Origin: a virus
Lineage: Duplodnaviria; Heunggongvirae; Uroviricota; Caudoviricetes
Length of the DNA: 37,945 bases
Virus record (IMG/VR): IMGVR_UViG_2526164597_000009
Direction: 5' to 3' (one strand)
The position numbers and the translations under genes were made by a program. Positions 1,143 through 37,687 of this stretch are shown piece by piece; within the stretch, counting starts at the first letter, position 1; every line of letters begins with the position of its first letter. Below the pieces are notes generated by a model. That model saw nothing but the letters and a program-made list of their open reading frames with translations. It had not been told where the DNA came from and did no database searches.

Positions 1143-1748
1143 TTATCTTTCTACTTCCCAGCGTAGAGATTGCATTAACATAGCATAAATATTGAACAGG
1201 AAAGTTTTTAAAGTTAATACAAGGAACACTGCACTGCTTCCTACGAGTATATATAGTATTTGAACTCCAACAACTTTAGTGCAATGAGAAAACATTAAGG
1301 CTCTGAGTAATTTTGTAGCCAATCCATTTTCTTGCCCGAAAAGAAGGACTAAAAGATAGATAACAGACCAAAATATGAAATATATAAATACTCTCATAAA
1401 TACGCCATAAACATATTTTAAGTAACTTATCCCGTATAATGGATGCTTATACTCCATTAATGAAAGGAAAAGTTCAGGTTTATTTATGGTTGCAAATATT
1501 GTAAATCCAGTAATTAAAAAACCTAATGTTGTTGTAGTGAATCCGAATACTAAAGGTGTCCATTGTCTAATAGATGAAATTAACTCTGGTGATGAAGATA
1601 GACAAAAAGCATTAATAGATAATAATATCACTAATAATAATGTGAAATAAAAGTCAAATGAATTGACCTTTATTTTTTTAGTTAATTTGTAAACATCATG
1701 CAAAGATCGCTCTTTGGTCAGATCTTCTGGGTTGAATGTATATTTCAT
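1143..1748 (-). CDS. Hypothetical inner-membrane protein (about 4 predicted TM helices), last gene of the repressor-proximal cargo cassette
   Basis: 201-aa ORF in low-GC DNA; hydrophobic stretches such as LLLVILLSINAFCL, LVFGFTTTTLGFLITGFTIFATI, VFIYFIFWSVIYLLVLLFG, FLVLTLKTFLFNIYAML; start is 1 nt from upstream ORF stop. Confidence 0.6.
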   Translation of the reverse strand: MKYTFNPEDLTKERSLHDVYKLTKKIKVNSFDFYFTLLLVILLSINAFCLSSSPELISSIRQWTPLVFGFTTTTLGFLITGFTIFATINKPELFLSLMEYKHPLYGISYLKYVYGVFMRVFIYFIFWSVIYLLVLLFGQENGLATKLLRALMFSHCTKVVGVQILYILVGSSAVFLVLTLKTFLFNIYAMLMQSLRWEVER

Positions 1749-1749
1749 A

Positions 1750-2214
1750 CTATAGCCACCTAGAAATTATTGATGTTAACTTGGAAAAAATTTTAGTATA
1801 ATCTTCACGTTCTGGAATAATAATATTTCCTGCATCCTTTAATTCTGTGAATGCAGAATACGCCTCTTGAGCAGCTCTTTCCAAATCAGAACTAAGTTGT
1901 GGCCTTGATGCTTTTAGAGTAAAACTATCATTATTCCCTGATAGCCTTGCTCCGTGTTCATCTTTACCACTTATAATTACTTTAGAGTTGGCCATTCGGG
2001 TTGCACTTGTTGTTTTTTGAATGACGGCCTCAGAATTTAAACCATCTTCATTTTTATTTGTGTATACTAATTGAGCTTTACTACTATTAAGTTCTTCTTT
2101 TTCTTGTTCAATTTTCCTCCAGAAGCCATCAAGAGATATATTTTCACTATTTGTTGGCAATAACTCAATTGATAATCTATTAACAACAGAAAAGAGTTCA
2201 ACAAAATTGCTCAA
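1750..2214 (-). CDS. Hypothetical protein; probably the C-terminal part of a frameshifted about 348-aa gene (with 2294..2797)
   Basis: ORF begins with TTG and no good RBS; its frame is open upstream into the 3' end of the preceding ORF. Confidence 0.4.
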   Translation of the reverse strand: MSNFVELFSVVNRLSIELLPTNSENISLDGFWRKIEQEKEELNSSKAQLVYTNKNEDGLNSEAVIQKTTSATRMANSKVIISGKDEHGARLSGNNDSFTLKASRPQLSSDLERAAQEAYSAFTELKDAGNIIIPEREDYTKIFSKLTSIISRWL

Positions 2215-2293
2215 TGATCTTGGGTCTGTTAAGGGGGTAACCCGTAATTTGGGGGCTCCTAGTTTACGATAAATATCTTTTTTATACAGTCGA

Positions 2294-2797
2294 TCAATGT
2301 ATGATTTTTCTTTCTAATTCTTTTATTTTTTTTACTTCGTAATCCACAAAAGAATTATATCGCTGTGCAAGGCAATACTTGCTAGTATTTTCAAATTCTT
2401 CTAGGGTAGGGGCTCCAGAAACCTCTTTGCAAAGCATTAATCTGTGCTCATTAAGCATAAGAATAAAAATAGAGCTGGGGTGACTTTCTAGCGTCCTGTG
2501 ATCTCGAATTAATTGACCATCTTGAAATATTTGATCTCGTTTAAATATGGTCTTTTTTATAATGCGGCCACACAATGCAATTGTTGGAACTATAGGACCA
2601 ATAAAATCTGAATCTGTAGTATCTAACGTAATAATTTTTGTGTCAGTAAAGAAATATTCTGTATCTTTAAATTTTCTAACGTATTTTTGTGCGAAAAATG
2701 AAGGAAAAACAATGCAATCAAAAGCATCTAAGAGAACTTTGTCCTCTCCAAAATTTAAGGTATAGTTTGCAAATTCAATAGTTTTCGTAAAGCTCAT
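2294..2797 (-). CDS. Hypothetical protein; probably the N-terminal part of a frameshifted cargo gene
   Basis: 167-aa ORF in low-GC DNA starting 2 nt after the repressor stop; ends at an A5/T5 homopolymer (plus 2305..2309) where a 1-nt shift joins it to the next frame. Confidence 0.5.
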   Translation of the reverse strand: MSFTKTIEFANYTLNFGEDKVLLDAFDCIVFPSFFAQKYVRKFKDTEYFFTDTKIITLDTTDSDFIGPIVPTIALCGRIIKKTIFKRDQIFQDGQLIRDHRTLESHPSSIFILMLNEHRLMLCKEVSGAPTLEEFENTSKYCLAQRYNSFVDYEVKKIKELERKIIH

Positions 2798-4600: not shown

Positions 4601-4777
4601 ATGCTTACTAAAGAACCATCATTTGCATCGCTGCTGGTAAAACAAAGTCCGGCAATGCACTACTACGGTCACGGCTGGATCATGGGGGAGGATGGTAAAC
4701 GCTGGCATCCGTGCCGTTCACAAGATGAATTGCTGGCAGAACTATCTACGAAAAAAGGGGGAACAAATGGCTATTGA
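4601..4777 (+). CDS. Small early phage protein, hypothetical
   Basis: 58-aa ORF with GAGG RBS; its stop overlaps the next gene start. Confidence 0.45.
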   Translation: MLTKEPSFASLLVKQSPAMHYYGHGWIMGEDGKRWHPCRSQDELLAELSTKKGGTNGY

Positions 4778-5108
4778 AGGCGCTGCGGCGACTGTTCCAT
4801 TAAGCCCCGGTGAACGCCTGAGTGGACTTAATCACATAGCGGAATTAAGGGCGAAAGTTTTTGGCCTGAATATTGAGTCAGAGCTTGAGCGGTTTATTAA
4901 AGATATGCGTGATCCACGGGATATCAATAATGAACAAAATAAACGGGCACTGGCTGCTATATTCTTTATGGCAAAAATTCCGGCTGAACGTCATAGCATC
5001 AGCATTAATGAGCTGACCACTGACGAAAAGCGGGAGCTGATTAAAGCAATGAATCATTTTCGTGCAGTGGTGAGCTTATTTCCCAGACGGCTAACCATGC
5101 CGAATTAA
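4767..5108 (+). CDS. Early phage protein, hypothetical
   Basis: 113 aa from MAIEGAAATVPLSP...; start overlaps upstream stop. Confidence 0.5.
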   Translation: MAIEGAAATVPLSPGERLSGLNHIAELRAKVFGLNIESELERFIKDMRDPRDINNEQNKRALAAIFFMAKIPAERHSISINELTTDEKRELIKAMNHFRAVVSLFPRRLTMPN

Positions 5109-5636: not shown

Positions 5637-6487
5637 GCACCATCCTGAAATGGGCGGGAAATAAAACTGCCATAATGTCCGAACTGAAAAAACATCTTCC
5701 TGCTGGCCCGCGACTGGTTGAACCTTTCGCGGGTTCCTGTGCTGTGATGATGGAGACGGATTATCCCAGCTATCTGGTTGCGGATATTAATCCTGATTTA
5801 ATCAACCTCTATAAAAAGGTTGCCGCTGATTGTGAATCGTTTATATCTCGCGCCAGAGTTTTATTTGAGATCGCAAACAGGGAGGTGGCTTATTACAACA
5901 TAAGGCAGGAGTTTAATTACTCAACTGAAATTACTGATTTCATGAGAGCGGTATATTTCCTGTATCTCAATCGTCACGGTTACCGTGGTTTATGTCGCTA
6001 TAACAAGAGCGGGCATTTCAACATTCCCTACGGTAATTATAAAAATCCGTATTTCCCTGAAAAAGAAATTCGCGCATTTGCAGAAAAGGCCCAGCGAGCA
6101 ACGTTTATCTGCGCCAGCTTTGATGAAACGCTGGCGATGTTGAAGGCGGGGGATGTGGTGTATTGCGATCCGCCGTATGACGGTACGTTTTCCGGCTATC
6201 ACACTGATGGTTTCACTGAAGATGACCAGTATCACCTGGCATCCGTTCTTGAACATCGAGCATCTGAAGGACATCCGGTCATTGTTTCTAACAGTGACAC
6301 GTCTTTGACCCGGTCTCTTTATCGTAATTTCACTCACCACTACATCAGGGCGAAACGCAGCATCGGCGTTGCAGCGGGGGAGGGAAAATTTGCAACAGAG
6401 ATGATTGCCACTAAATCTGCTAATTGGTTTAGTGCCGATTTTAGTAGGGGACGTGACTCTACTGTTATTTTCGGGGTGCAAGTGTGA
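5633..6487 (+). CDS. dam: DNA adenine methyltransferase (Dam-like, N6-adenine)
   Basis: ILKWAGNK N-terminus, [11 protein letters not shown]-binding motif, CDPPYDG catalytic motif; ATGA overlap with upstream gene. Confidence 0.88.
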
Positions 6488-7314
6488 AAGAAATGCACCA
6501 CGGAATTCATCATTTCCATGGGACGCCTGTCTGGGGAAGTGCTGGCGACGTTCATCGTATTGCGGTGAGCGGAGCTGGTGCTTTCGTCTCCTATGTACGA
6601 CCAGATCAGATTGCGGCGTCCATTCAGCACGCCCAGGTCGTTGGCATTGATAACGGCGCATTTTCTGCATGGGTGCGTGGGCTAAAAATTAACTGGAATG
6701 ATTTTTATAAATGGCTCCTGAACTATTACCACCATCCTAAGGTCGCTTTTTTTGTCATTCCTGATGTTGTGGACGGAGGTGAACGTGACAATGATGCCCT
6801 GATAAACGAAGTTCCGAAAATGTTCTACGGGAAGGCAACTCCCGTCTGGCATCTGCACGAGTCAATCGATCGGCTTATCGAGCTATGTCGTGAATGGCCT
6901 CGTGTCTGCTTTGGATCGTCTGGTGAATATGCGGCTATTAGAACTGCGCACTGGCATCGTCGTATGCAGGACGCTTTTGAAGCAATTTATTGCCGACACA
7001 ATTTCAAAACAGCTGTTCATGGTTTGCGCATGCTTGACGGTCGTGTGTTGGGAAATTACCCACTGGCGACTGCCGACAGTACAAATCTTGCCTGCAATGT
7101 CCCCAAATTTAATAGCAAATATCCTGAGCTTACGCGGGCTATTCAGGAGGCTGAGTATTCGCGCAATCTGACGGAAAAGGAGCTGAAAGCTGTCATTCTG
7201 AAAAACCGTTGCGCAATTTTAAAAGGTGCAATTGAAGCTGTTCGCCCACCTTCAGTTTCTGACTGGCTGTCGAATGGTTTGCAGCCTTCACAGCTCGAAC
7301 TGGAGATTGCGTAA
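6484..7314 (+). CDS. Hypothetical enzyme translationally coupled to Dam and A; possible DNA-modification function
   Basis: 276-aa ORF with GTG start overlapping dam stop; motifs [35 protein letters not shown] faintly recall the TGT/DpdA TIM-barrel pattern (unverified). Confidence 0.55.
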
Positions 7315-9686
7315 TGAACTACAGCTATTCCTGGAATGCTGAGAAAAAAGCAATCAATCCTTACGTAGAGACAGAAGAGCAATCTTCAGTTTCTGCGCTT
7401 TCAAACCTGATCGCTCTGTACGCTGCCGATAACGAGCAGGAACACCTGCGCCGCGAGGTACTGAGTGATCAGGTCTGGGAGCGTTATTTCTTTAATGAAT
7501 CCCGTGATCCTGTTCAGCGCGAAATGGAGCAGGATAAGCTCATTAGTCGGGCAAAGCTGGCGCATGAGCAGCAGCGTTTTAATCCAGATATGGTCATTCT
7601 GGCGGACGTCAATGCCCAGCCTTCCCATATCAGCAAGCCGCTGATGCAACGTATTGAATACTTCAGCAGCCTTGGCAGGCCAAAGGCTTATTCCCGCTAT
7701 TTGCGTGAGACGATTAAGCCATGTCTGGAACGGCTGGAGCATGTGCGCGACAGTCAGCTATCCACTTCTTTTCGCTTTATGGCAAGCCATGAAGGGCTGG
7801 ACGGCCTGCTGATTCTGCCTGAAATGAGTCAGGATCAGGTGAAACGCCTGTCCACCCTTGTTGCTGCGCATATGAGCATGTGCCTTGATGCAGCTTGTGG
7901 CGATTTGTATGCCACCGATGACGTTAAGCCAGAAGAAATCCGCAAGACATGGGAAAAGGTGGCAGCAGAAACCCTGCGACTGGATGTCATACCGCCTGCG
8001 TTTGAGCAACTCCGCCGGAAAAGAAACCGCCGTAAACCCGTGCCCTATGAACTCATTCCGGGTTCGCTGGCGCGTATGTTGTGCGCCGACTGGTGGTACC
8101 GGAAATTATGGAAGATGCGTTGCGAATGGCGGGAAGAGCAGTTGCGTGCTGTTTGCCTGGTCAGCAAAAAAGCATCTCCCTATGTCAGCTATGAAGCCGT
8201 GATGCATAAACGTGAGCAGCGCCGTAAGTCGCTGGAGTTTTTCCGTTCTCATGAACTGGTGAACGAAGACGGCGACACGCTGGACATGGAGGATGTGGTA
8301 AACGCCAGCAGCAGCAACCCTGCGCATCGCCGCAATGAGATGATGGCCTGTGTTAAAGGTCTGGAGCTTATCGCGGAAATGCGCGGTGACTGCGCCGTTT
8401 TCTACACCATCACCTGTCCGTCACGTTTCCATTCCACGCTAAATAACGGCAGGCCCAACCCAACCTGGACAAATGCGACGGTAAGACAAAGCAGTGATTA
8501 TCTGGTCGGCATGTTTGCTGCATTTCGTAAGGCGATGCACAAAGCCGGATTGCGGTGGTATGGCGTGCGGGTGGCTGAGCCGCATCATGACGGTACAGTT
8601 CACTGGCACCTGTTGTGTTTTATGCGCAAAAAAGACCGCCGCACCATCACTGCATTACTGCGTAAGTTTGCCATCCGTGAAGACCGCGAGGAGCTGGGCA
8701 ATAACACTGGGCCGCGCTTTAAGTCTGAGTTGATTAACCCGCGCAAAGGTACGCCAACAAGCTACATCGCGAAATACATCAGTAAGAACATTGACGGGCG
8801 TGGTCTGGCTGGCGAGATCAGCAAGGAAACGGGGAAATCCCTGCGTGATAATGCTGAATACGTTAATGCCTGGGCGTCTCTGCATCGTGTTCAGCAATTC
8901 CGCTTCTTTGGCATTCCGGGGCGTCAGGCTTACCGTGAACTGCGATTGCTGGCTGGTCAGGCGGCAAGGCAACAGGGGGACAAAAAAGCAGGTGCGCCGG
9001 TACTGGATAACCCGCGCCTTGATGCCATTCTGGCTGCTGCTGATGCTGGTTGTTTTGCCACCTACATCATGAAGCAGGGTGGCGTACTGGTTCCCCGCAA
9101 ATATCACCTCATCAGAACTGCTTATGAAATCAACGAAGAGCCGACCGCCTATGGCGATCACGGCATTCGTATTTATGGCATCTGGTCACCTATTGCAGAG
9201 GGCAAGATCTGCACTCATGCCGTGAAGTGGAAAATGGTTCGTAAGGCCGTTGACGTTCAGGAGGCGGCAGCCGACCAGGGCGCTTGCGCCCCTTGGACTC
9301 GTGGCAATAACTGTCCCCTTGCTGAAAATTTGAACCAACAGGAGAAAGATAAATCAGCTGATGGGGGCACTAGAACGGACATTACCCGCATGGATGACAA
9401 GGAGTTGCACGATTACCTGCACAGTATGAGCAAAAAAGAGCGCTGGGAACTGGCAGCAAGGTTACGCCTGGTTAAACCGAAACGGCGTAAAGACTACAAA
9501 CAGCGAATTACAGACCATCAGCGACTGCAGCTCGTCTATGAGCTGAAGTCCAGAGGATTTGATGGTAGCGAGAAAGAGGTCGATTTACTCCTTCGCGGCG
9601 GCAGTATTCCGTCAGGAGCAGGCCTGCGTATCTTCTATCGGAACCAGCGTTTGCGGGAAGATGATAAGTGGCGGAACCTGTATTAA
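7314..9686 (+). CDS. A: Replication initiation endonuclease (P2 gpA-like rolling-circle HUH endonuclease)
   Basis: 790 aa; HUH motif VHWHLLCF and tyrosine motif YIAKYISK; position after early operon. Confidence 0.9.
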
Positions 9687-9839: not shown

Positions 9840-10028
9840 ATGCAGGACTATTTTTTGGAGTCTTTGAAGCTCCAGCGCATTGATTTTTTTCTTAAGCTTG
9901 TAGCGGCTAGTGAGTGTAGTGATGAAGAGAAGGGGCTGGCTCTGCAGTGGGTTTCTGAATTGACTGATGAACTCATGGCAAAGATCAGAATCCACGAATA
10001 CAACCGCTCAATGGATGTCATCAGTTGA
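9840..10028 (+). CDS. Small SOS-regulated protein, possible Tum-like antirepressor N-terminal module
   Basis: 62 aa; strong AGGAGG RBS; immediately downstream of the LexA box. Confidence 0.4.
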   Translation: MQDYFLESLKLQRIDFFLKLVAASECSDEEKGLALQWVSELTDELMAKIRIHEYNRSMDVIS

Positions 10029-10038: not shown

Positions 10039-10272
10039 ATGCGCATTGAAATAATGATCGATAAAGAGCAGAAAATTAGCCAGTCTACTCTGGACGCCCT
10101 TGAATCCGAGCTTTACCGCAATCTGCGCCCCCTGTATCCCAAAGCGGTAATTCGTATCCGTAAAGGTAGCTCTAATGGTGTGGAACTGACCGGACTGCAA
10201 CTGGACGAAGAAAGAAAACAAGTGATGAAAATTATGCAGAAGGTGTGGGAAGACGACAGCTGGCTGCATTAA
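10039..10272 (+). CDS. dinI: DinI-family protein
   Basis: 77 aa, MRIEIMIDKEQKISQSTLDALESELYRNL...WEDDSWLH resembles E. coli DinI (MRIEVTIAK...ETWESADDWF); GAGG RBS. Confidence 0.7.
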   Translation: MRIEIMIDKEQKISQSTLDALESELYRNLRPLYPKAVIRIRKGSSNGVELTGLQLDEERKQVMKIMQKVWEDDSWLH

Positions 10273-10538: not shown

Positions 10539-11069
10539 TTAACCTTGTATAGTTATTTGAATATTTTCTTCATTAACACCAAAGTATAGGGCTAGCCCTG
10601 CTTTTGCCTCCTGAAGTGTTAACGGCTTAACTACATTTTCTTCTTCTTCTTCGTACTCATCACCCGCTTGATCGACAATCGAATTAGTCGGGGTTAATTT
10701 TGGAAGAGCTTTAAATTCCAACTTGTCAGCCTCAATGCCAATGTCTTTGAGGTTGCGATAAGATACGGGATTCCGATTGCCATCCCATTGTCCTGGGATG
10801 TCAATTTCAGCATAAGAATTGATGTTTATGATCCAGCGTTTAGGGTTTTCTGGAGCCCTGCTTACTCCCGAGATTCGACCGATCATAAAAGCATGATGAT
10901 GTTTTGCTTCTTGTGATCCCCAGTCCTTTCTCGAATTTTGTACACAAACTAAATATTCGTGCTTAGCTGCATGGCTGGCGTCAAGTCTCCATGCTTGGCT
11001 TCCCCCTGTGTTCAAAATCTCTGTTAAACCACGAGCAGTAAGTACAGTAATACAGTTGGTAGTAGCCAT
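10539..11069 (-). CDS. Hypothetical cargo protein (orphan gene in the cos-proximal variable region)
   Basis: 176-aa ORF on the opposite strand to neighbours, in low-GC DNA; acidic DEYEEEEEN tract; no family recognised. Confidence 0.5.
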   Translation of the reverse strand: MATTNCITVLTARGLTEILNTGGSQAWRLDASHAAKHEYLVCVQNSRKDWGSQEAKHHHAFMIGRISGVSRAPENPKRWIININSYAEIDIPGQWDGNRNPVSYRNLKDIGIEADKLEFKALPKLTPTNSIVDQAGDEYEEEEENVVKPLTLQEAKAGLALYFGVNEENIQITIQG

Positions 11070-11385
11070 TGAATTGTGACCCCGTCTTTTTTAGAGAAAT
11101 ACTATTGATGAATGTAGTTTACGTATTTTTTTATGGAGTAGTCAAGTTAGTATTATGCTCATTATTGGCTGTTTGTTGAGTATTGTGAGTTAGTACTTTG
11201 TGTAGTACCTCTTGATTTATGAGAATTAAATCTAAGTTATGACAAAGGGAGGCAGGGGGAACGCGCAGCGCAAGGTGGACAGGAGGCCATAAGGACTCAC
11301 TTGAAGTAAGAAAAGATCGATAAAGCAACAATGCATGTCTATGCCGCATGAATTCGCATGATCGTTTGAGGATCGTTTTAGCTGA

Positions 11386-11414
11386 GGCCCGCCAGGAATG
11401 GCGGGCTTTTGTTT
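11386..11414 (+). terminator. Rho-independent terminator (stem GCCCGCC/GGCGGGC followed by TTTTGTTT)
   Basis: 7-bp GC stem, 6-nt loop, T-rich tail on the plus strand; about 40 bp upstream of cos. Confidence 0.6.
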
Positions 11415-11455
11415 ATGTCATGCAAGTGCATGAAAACCACTACATAAAGCGGGCT

Positions 11456-11474
11456 GGCGTGGCGGGGATACGAG
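11456..11474. other. Candidate cos site (cohesive-end sequence GGCGTGGCGGGGATACGAG)
   Basis: Resembles the P2/186 19-nt cohesive end (GGCGAGGCGGGGAAAGCAC as recalled); located upstream of Q 3' end in the A-to-Q interval. Confidence 0.45.
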
Positions 11475-11787
11475 CGCGCGCAACGTGCATGATATGGCAA
11501 TATGCATAACCTAGTTGATGAGATGTCTTGCCACTAATAATATTAAAACGATTGAAACATGTGTTCCGTCCGTACCATAATCTTTAAGTGGGTGCAGGGC
11601 TAAATTGTATGATGAAGTATCATATTGCTTCTGAATACTAATGGATAAGTACACGATTGATGTGATGTTATTGCTGACTATTTTTTGTTCTAGTCTTACC
11701 GAAGACCCAACACGGGAGAAGAAATAGAAATTAATTGCGTGCCCTTTAAGTGCACAATTTAGCAACAATTTAAAAATGAGGTGAACA

Positions 11788-12186
11788 GTGAAAGAGTTGG
11801 AACTATATAATCTGAATTTTTATTTTAGCTTGTGTACTTCAGATGAAGTGGAAAGAATAAAAAATGTATCAAACTCGGCGGATTACTTACTCAAAATTAG
11901 GGCTAATGCAACTATAGAACATATCAGAATCCATCGGGTATTACTAGCTGCAATGCGTAGAAGTGGAAATAATTGGTCATTAAGTAGTTATTTTGATGAT
12001 TCTCCTTTTGAGGATTATATTGATGATGTTTCTGAACAGTACAAAGAACATCTAGAAGGGATCTCTGGCGGATTTGTATTTTGCAATGATCCGAATGGTC
12101 GGATATTAAAAACTGATTATGGATGTGTGATTACTATTTCAGAATCACTTAAGTATTTTTTGTATTACATGAATTTAGCTTTTTAA
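11788..12186 (+). CDS. Hypothetical protein; likely N-terminal part of a frameshifted HEXXH-peptidase gene
   Basis: 132-aa ORF with GTG start and AGGTG RBS; ends just after a T6 run (12156..12161) where a -1 shift enters the downstream frame. Confidence 0.45.
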   Translation: MKELELYNLNFYFSLCTSDEVERIKNVSNSADYLLKIRANATIEHIRIHRVLLAAMRRSGNNWSLSSYFDDSPFEDYIDDVSEQYKEHLEGISGGFVFCNDPNGRILKTDYGCVITISESLKYFLYYMNLAF

Positions 12187-12251
12187 CTTTTGATGATTGT
12201 GATGTTCCTGATGATGTAAGAATTGCTGCATTAAGAATTGCAATAAGAACT

Positions 12252-12869
12252 ATGATGCAAAAGGAATCAATGGATTTTGAAATTGATCCACGTGGTATAA
12301 TTCCATCACAAATTGATATGGAAATTAGGTACCATGTAAATGATGTGATGAAGTTTATTGTTGGTCATGAATATTCACATTACGTACTTGGGCATTTGAA
12401 TGATGAATCAACTTTCGAGGCGAGTTTTTTAACCTCTATTGATACGGAAGAAGTTAAACACAAATTTTTCTCCTATGACCAAAAGGATGAACTAGCAGCA
12501 GATATTCATTCTTTACGAATGTTGTCGCTTTCTAAAGAAAAATTGGCTGGGTTAATTCAAAAGGTTTGTATCTACTTCGTGTTCATGGATATATATTCAA
12601 ATGTAAAAGATCAGGTGTCACCTTCACTTAATTTCACAAAGACTCACCCTGAACCAATGGATAGGCTTAGAAATATCATAGAAGAGTTTAAGGAGGAAGT
12701 GGAAATTGATTATAATGAAATGGATAAGTTCATCAGATCAGGTGAGGTCATAAAGGGTTTCTTGCAAGATGATGCTGGGTATAATTTTGATGAAATATAT
12801 GATTTTTATGGATCAATTTATTTAGGTCAGTGGAGGGGAAAGCCGTTAATAGATAGGGTAGACTATTGA
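12252..12869 (+). CDS. HEXXH zinc metallopeptidase-like protein (ImmA/IrrE-like motif); likely C-terminal part of a split about 360-aa gene
   Basis: GHEYSHYVLGH motif near residue 38; the frame is open 33 codons upstream of the ATG without a start codon or RBS. Confidence 0.55.
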   Translation: MMQKESMDFEIDPRGIIPSQIDMEIRYHVNDVMKFIVGHEYSHYVLGHLNDESTFEASFLTSIDTEEVKHKFFSYDQKDELAADIHSLRMLSLSKEKLAGLIQKVCIYFVFMDIYSNVKDQVSPSLNFTKTHPEPMDRLRNIIEEFKEEVEIDYNEMDKFIRSGEVIKGFLQDDAGYNFDEIYDFYGSIYLGQWRGKPLIDRVDY

Positions 12870-12883
12870 GTTGATGTTTATAT

Positions 12884-12930
12884 CCCAAATGACAATCAAA
12901 AATAGTGAACTTCTGTGACTGTCATTTGGG
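12884..12930. terminator. Hairpin between convergent genes (possible bidirectional terminator)
   Basis: 11-bp perfect inverted repeat CCCAAATGACA/TGTCATTTGGG with a 25-nt loop, between the peptidase gene and the Q 3' end. Confidence 0.35.
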
Positions 12931-13003
12931 TGGTGATTGTAATTTTTATTTGCAGTGGTTATGCATCTTTGGTTTAAGGTTTTTCTATAGAGAGAATGCT
13001 CGT

Positions 13004-14050
13004 CTATTTAGCATGGTTGGAATCTAATATATATTTATTGAATTTCACAATTTCATCACCTATCCAAGTATTTAGCTGCGATATTTGATGTTGTAGTGGT
13101 ATTAATTCATTTCTAACAAAAACCGTACTTGCCTTCTCCACATCCCCAAACCCACCAACATTACTTGGCATAATCCCCATCATTTGCGGCGGAACGCGGT
13201 GCGCAGCCATCATATCGTCACGGCTCACGTTCTTGATGTTCAAAAACTCATCCTTTGCCGCCACTTCTGACAGCGGGATGATCTGAATGCCATCCTTTTT
13301 ACCGTTGGGCGAGTACATAAACAGGTTGCGGAAGTTGCCCGGCCCTTTGGCGCTTTTCATGGCATGGCGGATGTTGTTCACGTCCTCCTGGTTCTGCGCG
13401 GCGTCGGTCATGTACATGATGAAGCCTGCATGACTGCCGTTGATGTAATATTTCCTGCGGAACAGCGTGGCGGACTCGTTGAGCAGGGCTGACGGAATAG
13501 CAGAAAGATAGCCGGGCAGGCCGTAGATCTCCTGATTTATGTCCGGTTCCATCAGATGAAAAATGCTGCCTTTCGTGAACTGATACGGCTGGGTTGTCAT
13601 ACCGTATTGCACAAACCAGTAGGTATCCAGGTCTAACCCGCGTCGGGTGTATTTTGCCAGTGCAGGCTCAAGGGCGATAACTTCACCGAAGCGGTTCGTG
13701 CGTTTCTCCAGGTAGGCGTTACCAAAAACCAGATAGTCCTGCACAAAACGCGAAAAAGCCTGCTGGCTGAGCAGCGGGTGAGGGATGTAGGTGCTGGTCA
13801 GAATGTTGCATTTCACTGCAATCGGTGAACTGTGATGCACGGCAGCGCGGAAGGTGCGCGCCAGCCCGTCAAAGCTGACGGGCGGCTCATACCAACGGTC
13901 CATCTGTACGCATTCCACATAGTCCAGCAGTTCTCGGCGGTCCAGAACAGGAACGGGATCGCCGAAGCTGAATGCTTCGGCTGTAGTCTGGTTTTTATGC
14001 TGGATCTGATTCGTCGCCGCAGCGCGGTTCTTCTTACTCTTTCCCATCAA
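13004..14050 (-). CDS. Q: Portal protein (P2 gpQ-like)
   Basis: 348 aa; position and size match P2 Q (344 aa); stop/start overlap with P. Confidence 0.88.
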   Translation of the reverse strand: MMGKSKKNRAAATNQIQHKNQTTAEAFSFGDPVPVLDRRELLDYVECVQMDRWYEPPVSFDGLARTFRAAVHHSSPIAVKCNILTSTYIPHPLLSQQAFSRFVQDYLVFGNAYLEKRTNRFGEVIALEPALAKYTRRGLDLDTYWFVQYGMTTQPYQFTKGSIFHLMEPDINQEIYGLPGYLSAIPSALLNESATLFRRKYYINGSHAGFIMYMTDAAQNQEDVNNIRHAMKSAKGPGNFRNLFMYSPNGKKDGIQIIPLSEVAAKDEFLNIKNVSRDDMMAAHRVPPQMMGIMPSNVGGFGDVEKASTVFVRNELIPLQHQISQLNTWIGDEIVKFNKYILDSNHAK

Positions 14051-15813
14051 AAAATCTCCACAATATTGCTGGTATTGGCGGACTCGCCCTGCAGCGGTTC
14101 GTTAAACAGTGCGTGCATTGTTGCCCACGCCAGATCGGCATGGCTGGCTTCTTCGCTGCGGCTGGCTTCATAGGTCGGGCGGTTGCCGCTGGCGGTGGTG
14201 GCGCGACGGATTGCCATAAATGACTGCGCTATGTCGGTGTGTCCGGCGTCAAACTCCAGACGGCGGTGACTGATAATGTCGTAGGCCTTGAGTACCAGGG
14301 CATTTTTAACGTTGGGGTTGTAGACAAACTCCCGGACGGCAGGAAAAAACGCTTTCACGTTCTCGTAAACCCCATGACCGACGCCGGTTGAGTCGATACC
14401 GATGTATGTCACGTTGTACTGTTCAGTCAGTTTTTTGATGGCGTCAGCCTGGGTGCGGAAGTCCATCCCGCGCCACTGGTGACGCTCAAGAATGCGGAAC
14501 TTACCACCTGGCACGGCTGGCGGTGCCACCACCACGCATCCGGCGCTGTCGCCGTTCTGCGTACCTTTTGCCGGGTCATAACCGATCCACACTTCGCGCC
14601 AGCCAAACGGGCGCAGCGCCAGTGCATGAAAGTCGGTCCAGACTTCCCAGCTGTCCACCATACACGCCTGCAGTTCGCTGAGCGGAAACACGGACGCGAG
14701 ATCGTCCACGAACTCGCACATCAGCAGGTTCTGGTATTCATCCGGGCTGTACTCCATGCGCAACTGGTCAAGGTCGAACAGGTTACAGCCGCCGCGCACC
14801 GCGTCTTCCACGGTGACTATCTGGCGGTATTGCCCGTCTGCGCACAGCAGGCCGGGGGCCAGATTGCTGTGGGACAGGTCGATGTCCACCTTGTCGGCTT
14901 TGTTGCGTCCACGGTTGAACAGCGCACCGGACCAGAACGGATAAGCACTGTGGGTCAGGCTGGATGGCGTGGAAAAATAGGTCTGTCGCCATTTCTTGTG
15001 AATAGCCATACCGGAAGCCACTTTGCGCAACTCCTGGAATTTTGGGATCCAGAAATATTCATCCAGATACAGGTTGCCGTGATAACTCTGGGCTGTGCGG
15101 GCATTGGTGCCGAGGAAGTAAAGCGTGGCCCCGTTAGGAAGCACCATCGGATCGCCTTTCAGCTCCACCTCCACTTCTTTGGCAAAGTCGATGATGTACT
15201 GTTTGAAGACGTGGGCCTGTGCCTTACTGGCAGAAAGGAAAATCTGGTTACGTCCGGTAAGCAGGGCGTCAATCAGGGCTTCACGGGCAAAGTAAAAGGT
15301 CGCGCCGATCTGGCGTGACTTCAGCAGGTTGCGGATGCGGTTGGTTTTTCCGGCTTCCCACCAGTGGCGCTGGTAGTTGAACATGGAGGAATGGAAGATT
15401 TCTTCCAGCTTCTCAATCTGCTCATCGGTGAAAACATTCTTTTCCGGCTGACGGCGCGGGCCTTTGTTGCGGTTGGCGACGTTTGGGTTTAAGTCAGCTT
15501 CGTTGCCGCCATTGTTAAACTTGCCGATCCGCGCGTGGCGTTCCGACTGGCGCGCCAGCAGGTCAATCTCTTTGAAATCTTTCCCTTCTTTGTGCTCCTT
15601 CATAATGAGCTGGCAGTAGCGTGCGGCGGTGGTGAGCTGCATCTGATCCAGCGGCCCATAGTCACCCCACTTGTCGCGTTTTTTCCAGCTGTGAACGGTT
15701 GCAACTTTCTCGCCCAGCATTTCAGCAATGCGGGCTACGCGGTATCCCTGAAAGTACAGCAGCATGGCCTGCCGACGGGGATCGAGATCTGCGGGTGTCA
15801 GTGTGGTGTTCAT
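14047..15813 (-). CDS. P: Terminase large subunit (P2 gpP-like ATPase)
   Basis: 588 aa; size matches P2 P (590 aa); divergent from O. Confidence 0.88.
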   Translation of the reverse strand: MNTTLTPADLDPRRQAMLLYFQGYRVARIAEMLGEKVATVHSWKKRDKWGDYGPLDQMQLTTAARYCQLIMKEHKEGKDFKEIDLLARQSERHARIGKFNNGGNEADLNPNVANRNKGPRRQPEKNVFTDEQIEKLEEIFHSSMFNYQRHWWEAGKTNRIRNLLKSRQIGATFYFAREALIDALLTGRNQIFLSASKAQAHVFKQYIIDFAKEVEVELKGDPMVLPNGATLYFLGTNARTAQSYHGNLYLDEYFWIPKFQELRKVASGMAIHKKWRQTYFSTPSSLTHSAYPFWSGALFNRGRNKADKVDIDLSHSNLAPGLLCADGQYRQIVTVEDAVRGGCNLFDLDQLRMEYSPDEYQNLLMCEFVDDLASVFPLSELQACMVDSWEVWTDFHALALRPFGWREVWIGYDPAKGTQNGDSAGCVVVAPPAVPGGKFRILERHQWRGMDFRTQADAIKKLTEQYNVTYIGIDSTGVGHGVYENVKAFFPAVREFVYNPNVKNALVLKAYDIISHRRLEFDAGHTDIAQSFMAIRRATTASGNRPTYEASRSEEASHADLAWATMHALFNEPLQGESANTSNIVEIF

Positions 15814-22192: not shown

Positions 22193-22238
22193 ATTTGCAA
22201 GAAGTTATAAACAAGTTTTCAGCTGTCATCATATATCT

Positions 22239-22817
22239 ATGAACGCACAACTAACCGAAATCATGCGCCTTATCACCAATCTGATCCGCATAGGTGTAGT
22301 CACCGAAGTGGACCGGGAAAACTGGCTTTGTCGGGTGAAAACGGGCGACCTTGAAACCAACTGGATTAACTGGCTGACGCTGCGCGCGGGTAATGCCCGC
22401 ACATGGTGGCGACCATCGGAAGGTGAGCAGGTGGTACTGCTGAGTCTGGGCGGCAATCTGGAAACAGCCTTTGCTTTGCCCGCCATCTATTCTAATCAGT
22501 TTGCACCGCCGTCGCAGTCGGTGGACGCCTGTGTGACAGAACATCCTGATGGTGGCTGGTTTGAATACGAACCCACTACCGGGCGCTGGTATGTCAGGGG
22601 CATCAAATCCATGGTCATTGAGGCTGCCGACAACATCACCCTGAAAACCAGTGAGTTTGTGCTGGAGGCTGACCGCACGCGTATTAACAGCGAAGTAGTG
22701 ATCAATGGTGGCGTTACCCAGGGCGGCGGTGCAATGAGTTCTAACGGAATTGTGGTTGATGCACATCAGCATACTGGCGTCCTGAAAGGCGGCGACACAA
22801 CCGGAGGCCCGGTATGA
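22239..22817 (+). CDS. V: Baseplate assembly protein / spike (P2 gpV-like)
   Basis: 193 aa from MNAQLTEIMRLI...; longer ORF-track version begins in the inserted low-GC DNA. Confidence 0.85.
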   Translation: MNAQLTEIMRLITNLIRIGVVTEVDRENWLCRVKTGDLETNWINWLTLRAGNARTWWRPSEGEQVVLLSLGGNLETAFALPAIYSNQFAPPSQSVDACVTEHPDGGWFEYEPTTGRWYVRGIKSMVIEAADNITLKTSEFVLEADRTRINSEVVINGGVTQGGGAMSSNGIVVDAHQHTGVLKGGDTTGGPV

Positions 22818-23173
22818 CGCTTTATAGCGGGATGAACAATACCAGCGGCAAAGTCATTACTGATATTGACCATCTGCGCCAGTCGGTGCGGGACATTCTG
22901 CTGACGCCGCAGGGTAGCCGCATTGCCCGTCGGGAATATGGTTCCCTGCTGTCGGCACTGATAGATCAGCCACAAAATCCGGCGTTACGCCTGCAGGTCA
23001 TGTCGGCAGTGTATGTGGCGCTGAGTCGCTGGGAGCCACGGCTGACGCTGGATTCCATCACCATCAACAGCCATTTTGACGGTTCAATGGTGGTGGAGCT
23101 GAGCGGGCGGCGTAATAACGGTGTGCCTGTTTCCCTTTCCGTATCAACAGGAGCAGAGAATGGCAGTGATTGA
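22814..23173 (+). CDS. W: Baseplate protein (P2 gpW-like)
   Basis: 119 aa; stop/start overlap with V. Confidence 0.85.
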   Translation: MTLYSGMNNTSGKVITDIDHLRQSVRDILLTPQGSRIARREYGSLLSALIDQPQNPALRLQVMSAVYVALSRWEPRLTLDSITINSHFDGSMVVELSGRRNNGVPVSLSVSTGAENGSD

Positions 23174-24068
23174 CCTTTCGCAGTTGCCTGCGCCGCAGAT
23201 TGTGGATGTGCCGGACTTTGAGACGCTGCTTGCCGAACGCAAGGCCGAATTTGTGGCGCTTCATCCGAAAGATGAGCAGGAAGCAGTGATCCGCACGCTG
23301 GAACTGGAATCTGAACCCGTTACCAAATTGTTGCAGGAGAACGCTTATCGTGAGTTGCTTCTGCGCCAGCGCATTAACGAAGCCGCGCAGGCGGTGATGG
23401 TGGCTTACGCGATGGGCGGCGATCTTGACCAGCTCGCTGCTAACTACAACGTGAAACGCCTGACGGTGACACCTGCTGATGATGACGCTGTACCGCCCGT
23501 TGCGGCTGTGATGGAAAGTGATGAAGCGTTACGCCTGCGTGTGCCTGCAGCCTTTGAAGGGCTTTCTGTTGCGGGGCCAACTGCCGCTTATGAGTTTCAT
23601 GCACGAAGCGCCGACGGTCGGGTGGCGGATGCCAGTGCAACCAGTCCGGCACCTGCAGAGGTGGTACTGACTGTCCTTAGCCGCGAAGGCGACGGAACAG
23701 CAGAAAAAGACTTGCTGGATGTGGTGGAGAACGCCCTGAACAGTGAGAACGTCCGCCCGGTGGCTGACCGTCTGACGGTTCGCAGCGCAGAAATCATCCC
23801 GTACCGCGTGGAAGCCACCATTTTTCTTTATCCGGGACCGGAAGCAGAGCCGGTAATGGCAGCGGCAAAAGCCAGCCTGCAGAAGTACATCGCCAGTCAG
23901 ACGCGGCTTGGTCGGGATATTCGCCGTAGTGCCATTTTTGCCGCGCTGCATGTTGAGGGGGTTCAACGTGTGGAGCTGACTTCACCGCTGGCTGATGTGG
24001 TCCTGAACAAAACACAGGCCGCCTCATGTACGCAGTGGAGCGTAACCAACGGAGGAACGGATGAATAG
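23160..24068 (+). CDS. J: Baseplate protein (P2 gpJ-like)
   Basis: 302 aa from MAVIDLSQLPAPQIV with AGGAG RBS; same length as P2 J. Confidence 0.85.
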   Translation: MAVIDLSQLPAPQIVDVPDFETLLAERKAEFVALHPKDEQEAVIRTLELESEPVTKLLQENAYRELLLRQRINEAAQAVMVAYAMGGDLDQLAANYNVKRLTVTPADDDAVPPVAAVMESDEALRLRVPAAFEGLSVAGPTAAYEFHARSADGRVADASATSPAPAEVVLTVLSREGDGTAEKDLLDVVENALNSENVRPVADRLTVRSAEIIPYRVEATIFLYPGPEAEPVMAAAKASLQKYIASQTRLGRDIRRSAIFAALHVEGVQRVELTSPLADVVLNKTQAASCTQWSVTNGGTDE

Positions 24069-24666
24069 TCTGCTGCCACCAGGTTCAACGCTACTGGAGC
24101 GCCGACTGGCGCAGACCTGTAGCGGGATTTCTGATCTGCAGGTGCCGCTGCGTGACTTGTGGAATCCGGCAACCTGTCCGGTCAGTTTCCTGCCTTATCT
24201 CGCTTGGGCGTTCTCTGTGGATCGCTGGGACGAGGGCTGGACTGAAAGCGTCAAACGTCAGGTGGTGAAGGATGCTTTTTATATTCATCAGAATAAAGGA
24301 ACCACCAGTGCCGTGCGGCGGGTGGTGGAACCGTTCGGATTCCTGATCCGCATTATTGAGTGGTGGCAGACCGGCGAAACACCGGGCACGTTTCGCCTGG
24401 ATATCGGCGTGCAGGATCAGGGCATCACTGAAGATACCTATCTGGAACTTGAGCGACTGATAAGCGATGCCAAACCATGTAGCCGTCACATGATCGGCAT
24501 GTCCATCAATCTGCAGACCAGCGGCCCGCATTGGGTGGGAGCCGCCAGCTATCTTGGCGAAGAAATCACGATCTATCCGTATATCAACGAAACAATTATT
24601 TCCGGCGGCACCGCGCATGAAGGCGGGGCGGTCCATGTTATTGACACAATGAGAGTGAATCCATGA
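24061..24666 (+). CDS. I: Baseplate/tail protein (P2 gpI-like)
   Basis: 201 aa; overlaps J and H. Confidence 0.8.
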   Translation: MNSLLPPGSTLLERRLAQTCSGISDLQVPLRDLWNPATCPVSFLPYLAWAFSVDRWDEGWTESVKRQVVKDAFYIHQNKGTTSAVRRVVEPFGFLIRIIEWWQTGETPGTFRLDIGVQDQGITEDTYLELERLISDAKPCSRHMIGMSINLQTSGPHWVGAASYLGEEITIYPYINETIISGGTAHEGGAVHVIDTMRVNP

Positions 24667-26405
24667 GCACAAAATTTTATACCCTGCTGACGGATATTGG
24701 CGCGGCGAAACTTGCCAGCGCCGCCGCGCTCGGTGTGCCTTTAAAAATTACCCATATGGCGGTCGGCGATGGCGGCGGAACATTACCAACGCCGGACGCA
24801 AAGCAGACAGCACTGGTAAATGAGAAACGCCGGGCTGCGCTGAATATGCTCTATATCGACCCGCAGAACAGCAGCCAGATTATTGCTGAACAGGTGATCC
24901 CTGAAAACGAGGGCGGTTGGTGGATACGTGAAGTGGGCTTGTTTGATGAGTCCGGGGCATTGATTGCCGTGGGTAACTGCCCGGAAAGCTATAAGCCGCA
25001 ACTGGCTGAAGGCAGTGGGCGTACCCAGACCGTGCGCATGGTGCTGATTACCAGCAGTACGGGCAATATCATCCTGAAAATCGACCCTGCTGTAGTGCTG
25101 GCAACCCGCAAGTATGTGGATGACAAGGCACTGGAGCTGAAGGTGTACGTGGATGACCTGATAGCAAAACATCTTGCCGCACTGGACCCGCATTCACAGT
25201 ATGCACCCAAAGAAAGTCCGACATTTACCGGAACCCCCAAAGCGCCAACGCCAGCGGCGGGGAATAATACCACTCAGCTTGCGACCACCGCATTTGTTCA
25301 GGCGGCACTGACGGCCCTGATTAATGGTGCGCCAGCCACGCTGGACACGCTGAAAGAAATAGCCGCAGCCATTAACAATGACCCGAAATTCAGTACCACC
25401 ATTAACAATGCGCTGGCACTGAAAGCGCCGCTGTCGAGTCCGGCACTCACCGGAACGCCAACAGCCCCCACGGCGGCGCAGTCGGTCAACAATACACAGA
25501 TTGCCACTACGGCTTTTGTGAAATCGGCGATTGCGGCAATGGTGGGTTCTGCACCTGCGGCACTGGATACACTGAACGAACTGGCGGCGGCACTGGGGAA
25601 TGATCCGAACTTTGCCACGACAATGCTTAATGCGCTGGCAGGTAAACAACCGCTGGACAATACGCTGACTAATTTGAGTGGAAAGGATGTAGCTGGTCTT
25701 CTCACATACCTTGGTTTGGGAGAAGCCAGATTCTCTGGTCGTTTGTTAAACACGAATATTTTTAAAAGTTCTGGAAAATATATCCCAACACCAGGGACAA
25801 AAAAGATAAGGGTCATTGCCTCTGGTGGTGGCGGCGGCGGCGGTGGGGTTCCTGAAACAACAGAAAATCAGCAGGCAACAGCCGGAGCTGGATTGAGCGG
25901 CGCATTTATTGAAGCATTTTTCGAGGTTGATAATGATTTCGAAGTCAACGTTATTATCGGTGCTGCAGGTAAAGGGGGGGGAGCCGGAAGAAATTCAGGT
26001 AGTGAAGGTGGCACAACTTATTTCGGTTCCATGATAACTGCACCTGGTGGTACAGGCGGTGGCGCGGGGGGAGCATCTGCAAACACATCATATATTCAGG
26101 GTATTTCATGGGGTGCCAGTCCGACATCGTCCGGCACTGTACTAAGAGCATTTCGCTGTAGTGCAAAAACACCAGGAGCAATGGTTATCTCTGTTAAAGC
26201 TGTAGCAGGTGGTACCGGGGGGGATACACCATTAGGTTCAGGCGGTATAGGTGGTGCAAGTTCTTCATCATTCAGAGGACGTGGTGGTGGTAAAGCTGAG
26301 GGCTTTGGTGCTGGCGGAGGCGGAGCCTGCGCACCTGCTGGAAGTGAGGCTCAATCGGGAGGTGACGGTGCCCCGGGAATAGTTATTGTTGAGGAGTATG
26401 CCTGA
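24663..26405 (+). CDS. H: Tail fibre protein (P2 gpH-like) with constant N-terminal part and an invertible variable C-terminal part
   Basis: 580 aa; N-terminus MSTKFYTLLTDIGAAKLASAAALGVPLKITHMAVGDGGG typical of P2 H; tandem fibre repeats; glycine-rich C-terminal domain. Confidence 0.85.
   Translation: MSTKFYTLLTDIGAAKLASAAALGVPLKITHMAVGDGGGTLPTPDAKQTALVNEKRRAALNMLYIDPQNSSQIIAEQVIPENEGGWWIREVGLFDESGALIAVGNCPESYKPQLAEGSGRTQTVRMVLITSSTGNIILKIDPAVVLATRKYVDDKALELKVYVDDLIAKHLAALDPHSQYAPKESPTFTGTPKAPTPAAGNNTTQLATTAFVQAALTALINGAPATLDTLKEIAAAINNDPKFSTTINNALALKAPLSSPALTGTPTAPTAAQSVNNTQIATTAFVKSAIAAMVGSAPAALDTLNELAAALGNDPNFATTMLNALAGKQPLDNTLTNLSGKDVAGLLTYLGLGEARFSGRLLNTNIFKSSGKYIPTPGTKKIRVIASGGGGGGGGVPETTENQQATAGAGLSGAFIEAFFEVDNDFEVNVIIGAAGKGGGAGRNSGSEGGTTYFGSMITAPGGTGGGAGGASANTSYIQGISWGASPTSSGTVLRAFRCSAKTPGAMVISVKAVAGGTGGDTPLGSGGIGGASSSSFRGRGGGKAEGFGAGGGGACAPAGSEAQSGGDGAPGIVIVEEYA
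25215..25656 (+). repeat. Tandem duplication (two copies of about 215 bp) encoding tail-fibre repeat modules within H
   Basis: Protein repeats PTFTGTPKAPT...TTAFVQAAL...LDTLKEIAAAINNDP and PALTGTPTAPT...TTAFVKSAI...LDTLNELAAALGNDP. Confidence 0.5.
25699..25724. promoter_or_regulatory. DNA-invertase crossover site (left; Gin/Hin/Cin/Pin-type 26-bp site) inside H
   Basis: TTCTCACATACCTTGGTTTGGGAGAA; its right half is the reverse complement of the right site's left half. Confidence 0.6.
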
Positions 26406-26671
26406 TGAGTAATTTTGCTCTGATTGAACATGGCGTGGTGAAAAATATTATTATCTGGGATGGAGAGGGTGATTTATTCTCTAATTGCGAAATTATAAAT
26501 GTTGATCATATAGATGCAGGCGTCGGTTGGTTCTATTCTGACGGAGAGTTTATAGCACCACCGGAACCGGAAATGACTGAATATGATGTTGGTAATATCG
26601 ACGCGGTGATGGAAGCAGATACCAGCACCGCGCCGGGGGTTATCTGGCCAGTTCCACCTGAGATGGTTTAA
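26405..26671 (+). CDS. Putative tail fibre assembly/chaperone protein (gpG position), within invertible segment
   Basis: 88-aa ORF overlapping H stop (ATGA), C-terminus GVIWPVPPEMV; short relative to P2 G. Confidence 0.45.
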   Translation: MSNFALIEHGVVKNIIIWDGEGDLFSNCEIINVDHIDAGVGWFYSDGEFIAPPEPEMTEYDVGNIDAVMEADTSTAPGVIWPVPPEMV

Positions 26672-26900
26672 TCTCAATCAGAATGGGTTCGCCCTTCTCG
26701 TTAACAGATATTTCCATTCCTTCAGGGATTTCAGATGCAGTAAAAAACCAGTTATCTTCTGGTAATTCCACAGCCCCGGTCACGTCATGAAGACCGGGGA
26801 TTACTTCAGTCAAAGTAACAGGATTAAACAGGCGCACAATAAACTCTCCAGGAAAAAGCACTTGTTGATGGTCTTCCGTCGTACATCTGGCAGCGGACAT
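26640..26900 (-). CDS. Putative alternative tail fibre assembly/chaperone protein (G-prime), silent in current orientation
   Basis: Minus-strand ORF downstream of the alternative fibre cassette; start ambiguous (ATG at 26900 or GTG at 26837 with GGAG RBS). Confidence 0.35.
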   Translation of the reverse strand: MSAARCTTEDHQQVLFPGEFIVRLFNPVTLTEVIPGLHDVTGAVELPEDNWFFTASEIPEGMEISVNEKGEPILIEIKPSQVELAR

Positions 26901-27165
26901 AAAAACCTGTATTACTGACCTGGTCATCCACGATCATTGAAACGTGAACGTTATTAGGTGTGGCCTCGTAATCTGTTCTTATTCTTTCCGCTATGCTGAT
27001 AAAACGTGAAAGCTTAGGTAGTGCAATTGGATAAACGACTTTAGCCAGCCCATTATCATTGGAACCACCAGTTCCAAATACTTCTATTGCACCATCTGAC
27101 CAGCGTATCCATGCACCATTGACATTAGCTCCTCGCTGAATGACATATCTGGCTTCTCCCAAACC
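26824..27165 (-). CDS. Promoterless alternative tail-fibre C-terminal cassette (Hv-prime) within the invertible segment
   Basis: Minus-strand frame passing through the right crossover site and encoding the same GLGEAR junction peptide as H at the left site. Confidence 0.45.
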   Translation of the reverse strand, partial: GLGEARYVIQRGANVNGAWIRWSDGAIEVFGTGGSNDNGLAKVVYPIALPKLSRFISIAERIRTDYEATPNNVHVSMIVDDQVSNTGFYVRCQMYDGRPSTSAFSWRVYCAPV

Positions 27166-27179
27166 AACGTTTATGAAAA
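27154..27179. promoter_or_regulatory. DNA-invertase crossover site (right), inverted relative to 25699..25724
   Basis: TTCTCCCAAACCAACGTTTATGAAAA, close to recalled cix/gix/hix sites; about 55 bp upstream of the invertase gene. Confidence 0.6.
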
Positions 27180-27234
27180 TGCAGAGATAACGGCTAACTG
27201 GCATCATCCCCGGTTTTTATTCAGGGGATTGATC

Positions 27235-27801: not shown

Positions 27802-27849
27802 ATCAGCATTATTTTGATTATCCCTGAAAGCAGACAAATACCGTCATTT

Positions 27850-27867
27850 TGTGTGAATAACGGTACA
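27850..27867. promoter_or_regulatory. Candidate Ogr-binding site (TGT-N12-ACA) of the FI/FII late promoter
   Basis: TGTgtgaataacggtACA centred about 85 bp upstream of FI ATG; resembles the P/O site. Confidence 0.4.
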
Positions 27868-27943
27868 ACTGCGCTTAGCTGTTTGTCAGGCACAATCACT
27901 TCAACATAGGGCGAAGCCTAATCCAATCAGGAGGTTCGCCACT

Positions 27944-29116: not shown

Positions 29117-29125
29117 GGGGACAAC

Positions 29126-37678: not shown

Positions 37679-37687
37679 GTCAGACGA

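Follow-up and report, generated by a model that had tools for sequence, protein, structure and literature searches.

A Lit-like zinc metallopeptidase gene, interrupted by a one-base deficit in a T run, among the cos-adjacent cargo of a P2-like Escherichia coli prophage

Lit is the classic case of abortive infection by a single proteolytic protein, a sparsely populated class; it cleaves EF-Tu and is triggered by the T4 Gol peptide. The three motifs of its catalytic core read HEISHVVLQH, EREAD and THPAAYER. M48 peptidases, with which the gene described here also shares a core, have varied roles. The cos-adjacent region between gpA and gpQ of P2-like phages has been described as a defence hotspot (Rousset et al. 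2022, PMC9122126), and a second prophage hotspot from the same study, in Bacillus, spans the interval from a regulator to a peptidase next to the integrase (PMC9122126). The supplement of that study lists the exact protein considered here as system 137, named 'Peptidase_U49' and present in 16 genomes; system 137 was not among the systems cloned and tested (PMC9122126). The gene is accordingly already known as a catalogued candidate anti-phage protease (PMC9122126), and our literature search found no paper testing the family for anti-phage activity.

The window examined in the present study, the whole stretch of 37,945 nucleotides of the IMG/VR record IMGVR_UViG_2526164597_000009, is a P2-like prophage. 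Over 20,399 nt it shows 100% identity with contig AIHN01000039.1 (GCA_000250475.2) of E. coli DEC14D. The peptidase gene lies in a cargo slot bounded on the left by a conserved non-coding block and on the right by the portal gene, in the following setting:

7314..9686: replication gene A (gpA)
9840..10028: small ORF
10039..10272: DinI-like gene (PF06183)
10539..11069, minus strand: gene for a 176-aa protein
11332..11485, no strand: conserved non-coding block, left boundary of the variable cargo slot
11457..11475: cos-like sequence GGCGTGGCGGGGATACGAG, found by eye within the conserved block
13004..14050, minus strand: portal gene Q (gpQ; PF04860), right boundary of the cargo slot
14047..15813, minus strand: terminase gene P

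The conserved block shows 91-96% identity in P2-like phages of Yersinia, Escherichia and Klebsiella, and homology with the prophage of strain A41 (L002) stops at 11480 and restarts at 13091. We take the first 13 nt of the cos-like sequence to match the cos of phage 186; the exact P2 cos 19-mer is absent from the window with up to three mismatches allowed. Positions 11457..11475 would, on this likeness, act as the cos site. The initial annotation had described a cargo gene at the left genome end, which agrees with the position of the gene at the cos-proximal end of a P2-like genome. The gene thus occupies a gpA-gpQ, cos-adjacent slot of variable occupancy, as defined for the P2 defence hotspot. 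Related prophages carry other cargo in the same slot, for example a hypothetical gene with a HIRAN gene, and elsewhere in the A-Q hotspot of related E. coli prophages there are retron, HipA, Old-like and TIGR02391 genes. Within the region the peptidase gene is on the Q side of cos, and the DinI-like gene and the 176-aa gene are on the A side. The 176-aa gene (WP_000246368.1 in strain A41) is conserved across related E. coli P2-like prophages while the Q-side cargo changes; its product has no match in Pfam or PADLOC.

Other variable parts of the window were also recorded. The integrase-CI interval holds a second cargo pair of low GC content (30-33%) on the minus strand (1143..2797), consisting of a 201-aa and a 349-aa gene, neither of whose products matches Pfam or PADLOC. 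The 349-aa gene is split here into 1750..2214 and 2294..2797 and is intact in NZ_CP173591. The fil gene (P2/186 type, 66 aa in the reference; window 4601..4800) has a frameshift near residue 50, with A6 in place of A7 at about 4749..4754. A further variable slot, from the dam methylase gene to gene A (6443..7388), holds a 276-aa ORF (6484..7314) with no precomputed Pfam match on record; in a prophage of 99% similarity (L004) this slot contains a gene of the PAPS-reductase family.

The features of the peptidase gene, all on the plus strand, are as follows:

11778..11784, plus strand: 7-nt Shine-Dalgarno match GAGGTGA, by sequence inspection
11788..12869, plus strand: whole gene, one coding sequence for a 360-aa M48/Lit-like putative zinc metallopeptidase, broken here by a one-base deficit
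11788..11790, plus strand: GTG start codon of the whole gene; the close orthologues all begin MKELELYN
11788..12186, plus strand: ORF1 of the ORF list, 132 aa, with a GTG start
12156..12161, plus strand: T6 run named in the initial annotation, not the lesion site and the same in the intact allele
12180..12184, plus strand: frameshift site, T5 here and T6 in intact alleles, by alignment with the intact allele L001
12252..12869, plus strand: ORF2, 205 aa, containing GHEYSHYVLGH, with no Shine-Dalgarno sequence seen by eye
12366..12395, plus strand: predicted zinc-binding and catalytic motif HEYSHYVLGH (H194, E195, H198 and H203 in repaired numbering), invariant in 62 homologues
12425..12430, plus strand: second T6 run in the gene, at which the DEC14C protein EHX92575.1 terminates
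12489..12503, plus strand: ELAAD motif (E235, A238, D239), invariant and aligned with EREAD of Lit
12642..12665, plus strand: THPEPMDR motif (H287, P288, R293), typical of M48 and Lit, invariant and aligned with THPAAYER of Lit
12884..12930, plus strand: inverted repeat with 15-nt arms and a 17-nt loop, directly 3' of the stop codon

The inverted repeat is a possible terminator, although a consensus terminator scan did not call it. The GC content of the peptidase gene region is about 32-34%, compared to about 55% for the structural genes.

The two ORFs form a single gene, encoding 360 residues and deposited for E. coli DEC14D as the fragments ECDEC14D_1010 and ECDEC14D_1011. This had been anticipated from the sequence as a gene of about 360 aa broken at a T homopolymer, and most of the details given with that proposal stand: the GHEYSHYVLGH motif lies in ORF2, no ribosome-binding site precedes its start, and 33 further codons of open frame lie ahead of it, beginning at 12153 after a TAA at 12150. 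The position proposed for the shift does not. The run 12156..12161 is unchanged in the intact allele, the real site is 24 nt away in another T run, and a fusion at the former would carry eight wrong residues (FVLHEFSF instead of LYYMNLAF). The intact allele, with 98.9% nucleotide identity across window positions 11451..13433, has one additional T at position 12180 and reads GCTTTTTTAAC where the window reads GCTTTTTAAC. Across the junction the intact 360-aa orthologues read LKYFLYYMNLAF followed directly by LTFDDCDV. Since the close orthologues P0001, P0002, P0132 and P0133 continue there as SESLKYFLYYMNLAF-LTFDDCDVPDD, the frame of ORF1 is correct up to its own stop codon, the TAA at 12184..12186, whose first base is the final T of the run. 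With five Ts here and six in the orthologues, the missing base therefore lies in the run 12180..12184, and the exact lesion is one T missing from it.

Insertion of one T at 12180..12184 gives a translation equal to P0132 residue for residue, and identical also to the system 137 protein of Rousset et al. Because this one-base repair reproduces a protein present on 155 contigs, chance is excluded; the near-identical P0133 is found on a further 104 contigs of the cluster table. Intact orthologues of 360 aa, identical save for the break, occur on more than 250 E. coli contigs. A homologue search with the fused protein listed 120 matches, most of them single proteins of 355-450 aa with 96-100% query coverage (P0001, for instance, with 98% identity and 100% coverage) and a minority shorter or partial. 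The alignment with intact orthologues suggested in the initial annotation consequently returned single genes of about 360 aa as well as the placement of the lesion, and two independent orthologous genes, the finding that would have spoken against a single gene, were not seen among the homologues examined.

Inactivation, phase variation and sequencing error had all been left open as causes of the break. Of these, sequencing error is now favoured: the T5 run is most probably a homopolymer undercall in the reads of a draft genome. Relative to a 99.3%-identical prophage (L004) the window has three further one-base deficits in homopolymers, namely T5 at 2305 and T8 at 2326, which both break the 349-aa cargo gene next to CI, and A6 at 4751, which breaks the conserved fil gene; the L004 copies of both genes are intact. 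All four window lesions are thus one-base deletions in A/T runs, and no nonsense mutation, IS element or larger deletion was found among the inactivating lesions of this prophage. The corresponding protein of the sister strain DEC14C (P0125, EHX92575.1) reads ...MNLAFLTFDDCDV... across the break of the window and ends ...EASF at the T6 run 12425..12430, a position derived from the end of the protein and not from DNA. Deletions restricted to A/T runs, together with a different break in the sister assembly, are the pattern expected of homopolymer undercalls, and the DEC genomes were presumably 454-sequenced.

The main rival is a real frameshift, by which DEC14D would carry a recent pseudogene formed through replication slippage in T6; general prophage decay, a mutator background or the removal by selection of a protease that is costly or toxic could lie behind it. 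In our estimation this is rather unlikely. In its favour, a Logan k-mer reassembly of the raw run SRR099143, which may not be the run of DEC14D, shows the same T5; five Ts are accordingly what the reads of that run agree on, and a slip of the assembler is not the source. The homopolymer deletions elsewhere in this prophage, in three other genes or parts of genes, could likewise be real, as such deletions would also be expected in a lineage deficient in mismatch repair or where a costly protease is selected against, and the different break of the same gene in DEC14C could mean repeated selection for loss. Against it stand the restriction of every lesion to a one-base A/T-run deletion, a coding sequence that outside the break encodes P0132 exactly, and a gap-free alignment of 15.7 kb of the window (22237..37945) to a 99.2%-identical relative. 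A single genome, moreover, accounts for all records of the 132-aa product specific to T5 (the NCBI contig and the Logan reassembly of one run), and pseudogenes recognisable as defence genes are rare, at about 2% of P2 pseudogenes (PMC13586616). Real homopolymer breaks in both DEC14C and DEC14D, through selection against the cost of the peptidase, are the less likely account of the two assemblies. Even further from the evidence is a regulatory switch, in which the length of the tract would vary by phase or a -1 ribosomal slip on GCU-UUU-UAA would supply a low level of full-length protein; we consider this extremely improbable. If tRNA-Phe made a -1 slip at the stop codon, from UUU (12181..12183) to UUU (12180..12182), the exact A-F-L-T-F junction would indeed result. 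There is, however, no X XXY YYZ heptamer, and the orthologues are in frame with T6, which makes frameshifting unnecessary; with every orthologue in frame, nothing suggests that a programmed slip is used. Tracts of 5-6 nt are below the lengths known to phase-vary at useful rates. Phase variation, as the other part of the initial proposal, also fits poorly with the records, in which the T6 protein is found on 155 and 104 contigs and T5 in one genome.

Sequencing error being the preferred reading, the window is best treated as an old draft genome in which four homopolymer deletions imitate broken cargo genes, and frameshifts at its A/T runs should not be taken as biology unless read-level support exists. 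In a separate comparison, the portal and terminase genes of E. coli 214-4 (NZ_CP025840, L003 123..2920) are annotated as frameshifted in a complete reference genome. Relative to that genome the window has an extra A at homopolymers 13242, 14049 and 14302; the window ORFs are intact where those of 214-4 are frameshifted, and homopolymer errors therefore affect the reference too.

The repaired protein has the conserved catalytic motifs and the fold of an M48-like peptidase, and metal binding is predicted from its sequence. Pfam M48 (PF01435) matches residues 229-297 at model positions 134-182 of 186, with 25.2 bits against a gathering cutoff of 20.3, and at E <= 0.01 the model also finds 54 of the 62 family members. 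Ten residues that make up the motifs HExxHxxxxH, ExxAD and THPxxxxR (H194, E195, H198, H203, E235, A238, D239, H287, P288 and R293) are invariant in the 62-sequence alignment. The AF2 model (pLDDT 91.3, pTM 0.91) places a helix at residues 232-244, and E235 is presumed to be the third zinc ligand on this 'glutamate helix'. The structural alignment with M48 peptidases extends over about 160 residues, as expected of an M48-type fold. Foldseek searches of PDB and BFVD gave no significant whole-chain match, and a profile search of PDB sequences returned noise only. Strong conservation specific to the family is found in the N-terminal half (D32, L34, R50, G112, R154 and E160-G170) and in the C-terminal tail YGSxYL...WRGxxLxDRVDY. 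The repaired protein contains neither a signal peptide nor a segment of transmembrane-level hydrophobicity. In the predicted secondary structure the break at residue 132 comes after a three-stranded sheet and a helix, which are probably part of the catalytic domain; the break therefore probably falls inside or at the edge of that domain and not between domains, and ORF2 alone is unlikely to be active. The earlier division into an N-terminal domain of uncertain nature plus a peptidase does not agree with this arrangement.

Variation in length was noted among the relatives. P0131, a near-identical ENA metagenome protein of 334 aa, has an in-frame deletion of 26 residues (SIDTEE...ADIHS) that removes ExxAD, and may represent either a misassembly or an allele inactivated in nature. 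Four proteins of 420-440 aa (P0052, P0063, P0070 and P0108) have an N-terminal extension of 50-100 residues with a SEC-C motif (PF02810).

An ImmA/IrrE-type (M78) identity had been proposed from the HEXXH signature, and a sensor or regulator of this kind would act in a circuit of induction or defence by cutting its partner repressor. M78 peptidases resemble this protein in being small zinc peptidases, in occurring on mobile elements and in having HEXXH with a Glu further along the chain. The assignment did not survive the family searches: the window protein has no M78 match at E <= 1, one of 62 homologues has one at E = 0.0023, and the matches are M48/Lit-like instead. As no HTH/Xre partner lies beside the gene in the window and no neighbour family recurs among its homologues, this already disfavoured role is very unlikely.

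Homologues of the peptidase are solitary genes of prophages, ICEs, plasmids and defence islands across phyla. An exhaustive profile search recovered 178 cluster representatives at E <= 1e-30 and 289 at E <= 1e-10, and many of the representatives begin 50-110 residues earlier. The 80 loci taken from species-representative genomes belong to Pseudomonadota, Bacteroidota, Bacillota, Cyanobacteria, Acidobacteriota and other phyla. In a crude census of immediate neighbours (129 flanking longest ORFs scanned as a batch, raw counts, top 25 families listed) no family occurred in more than four of the 129, and on this count there is therefore no conserved partner. Defence-type neighbours comprised PDC-M62B, PDC-M01B, PbeA, DpdF, PsyrT, BrxH, SngC, Avs2 and MkoC; the others included integrases and many ordinary genes. 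Among individual loci, the Leclercia homologue adjoins an integrase and a type II restriction-modification system, the Enterobacter homologue is ICE cargo near TIR, Fic and HNH genes, and the homologue in Pseudomonas fluorescens has T5orf172 on one side and HEPN_AbiV on the other. The Macrococcoides homologue adjoins MmeI and an AAA_15 ATPase, and that of Colwellia is near a TIR-STAND gene. In Bacillus cereus the homologue is in a prophage, between a CI-like repressor on one side and an M78 peptidase and integrase on the other, a context that matches the Bacillus prophage hotspot of PMC9122126. A Providencia homologue (L013 7001..8083) is inserted between terS and terL of an unrelated prophage, and adjoins the packaging module as does the window gene. 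The family is also present on 52 Agrobacterium/Rhizobium plasmids including pTiC58, on which the copy is beside a RES toxin gene and a helicase gene. An M48 gene in the EPEC RptR-RMS-DarTG island (PMC12255303) was considered and judged unrelated from its different genomic context.

Megablast of window positions 11700..12950 gave no match in 5,426 complete E. coli genomes or in phage genomes, and tblastn of the protein against the phage collection likewise found it in no isolated phage genome. A 5.39-Mb contig is nonetheless on record as carrying the intact protein, and such records may be absent from those collections.

Taken as a whole, the explanation that we favour, with moderate confidence, is that of one cargo gene with an artefactual T5 whose intact product is a latent Lit-like defence protease. 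The P2-like prophage of E. coli DEC14D would bear the gene as cargo in its cos-portal slot, and the intact gene would yield a soluble cytoplasmic zinc metallopeptidase of 360 aa with an M48-type core and the three motifs of Lit. The protease would be latent until a phage-derived trigger appears and, once triggered, may cleave an essential host or phage protein, by analogy with the action of Lit on EF-Tu. The location of the gene in a defence hotspot and its distribution as a solitary gene borne on mobile elements are observed; sequencing error as the cause of the break, the defence role, the latency, the trigger and the target are inferred. As for the function itself, a stand-alone Lit-like abortive-infection protease is the most likely reading, by a modest margin. 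Several results argue against a role in defence. PADLOC gave no significant match, and the protein scored 17 bits against a Lit cutoff of 274; many neighbours in other phyla are housekeeping genes, and no isolated phage genome in the collection encodes the protein.

These results leave some room for an intact peptidase that is cargo of another kind, for example a protease for counter-defence or host manipulation that aids its carrier, be it prophage, plasmid or ICE, or one that acts in stress or quality control. The variety of M48 roles, the many metabolic-gene neighbours outside enterobacteria, the copies on Agrobacterium/Rhizobium plasmids with their RES toxin and helicase neighbours and the PADLOC result are all compatible with it. 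It is nevertheless unlikely, given that the gene is found in two independently defined prophage defence hotspots, is repeatedly adjacent to restriction-modification, Abi, TIR-STAND and Avs genes, and encodes a protein with a Lit-type catalytic core that, unlike the housekeeping M48 enzymes, lacks membrane or periplasmic targeting. A more tentative proposal within the defence reading, which we regard as possible, is that the proteins form a new family of stand-alone anti-phage proteases, of about 180 clusters at 50% identity in many phyla, that have only the M48/Lit core in common with Lit. Their own conserved N-terminal half and invariant WRGxxLxDRVDY tail would then serve to recognise a phage trigger and to steer the protease to a substrate that is not EF-Tu. 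As a compact, solitary and widespread gene with a Lit-like zinc-peptidase core, the intact gene is a reasonable candidate for experiment. If active, it would provide a second example of single-protein proteolytic abortive infection, and its trigger and substrate could then be found.

Compared with known systems, the protein differs from ImmA, IrrE and CapP (M78) in family by Pfam, in fold ranking and in gene neighbourhood. With respect to the M48 enzymes BepA/YfgC, HtpX and Ste24 (PF01435), the Pfam match is confined to the C-terminal third of the model; the protein has none of the signal peptide, membrane segment or periplasmic targeting of the housekeeping enzymes, and the family is patchily distributed on mobile elements and is not a core gene. 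Databases of defence and phage proteins place it no closer to another family: PADLOC-DB 2.0 gave nothing significant (best match peptidase_U41, E = 0.032) and PHROGs no meaningful match. It shares its locus with the P2 hotspot cargo old, tin, retrons and PARIS (PMC9122126), and here too the cargo is low in GC. Similarity to Lit is weak (hhalign E = 0.015) and confined to about 116-120 residues of the catalytic core, the N-terminal half and C-terminal tail being different. The Lit equivalog NF007238 scores 17.1 bits against a cutoff of 274 (E = 0.0024), and none of the 62 members matches PF10463 at E <= 0.01 with the current Pfam; precomputed PF10463 matches exist for about 20 of the 120 listed homologues, with a weak one for the C-terminal fragment of the window. 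Lit (prophage e14; MEROPS U49, PF10463, NF007238) and this protein are nonetheless both single-gene, prophage-borne, predicted soluble zinc peptidases, and share the motifs HE[IY]SH[VY]VL[QG]H, E-x-x-A-D and THP-x4-R, whose order and spacing agree between the two.
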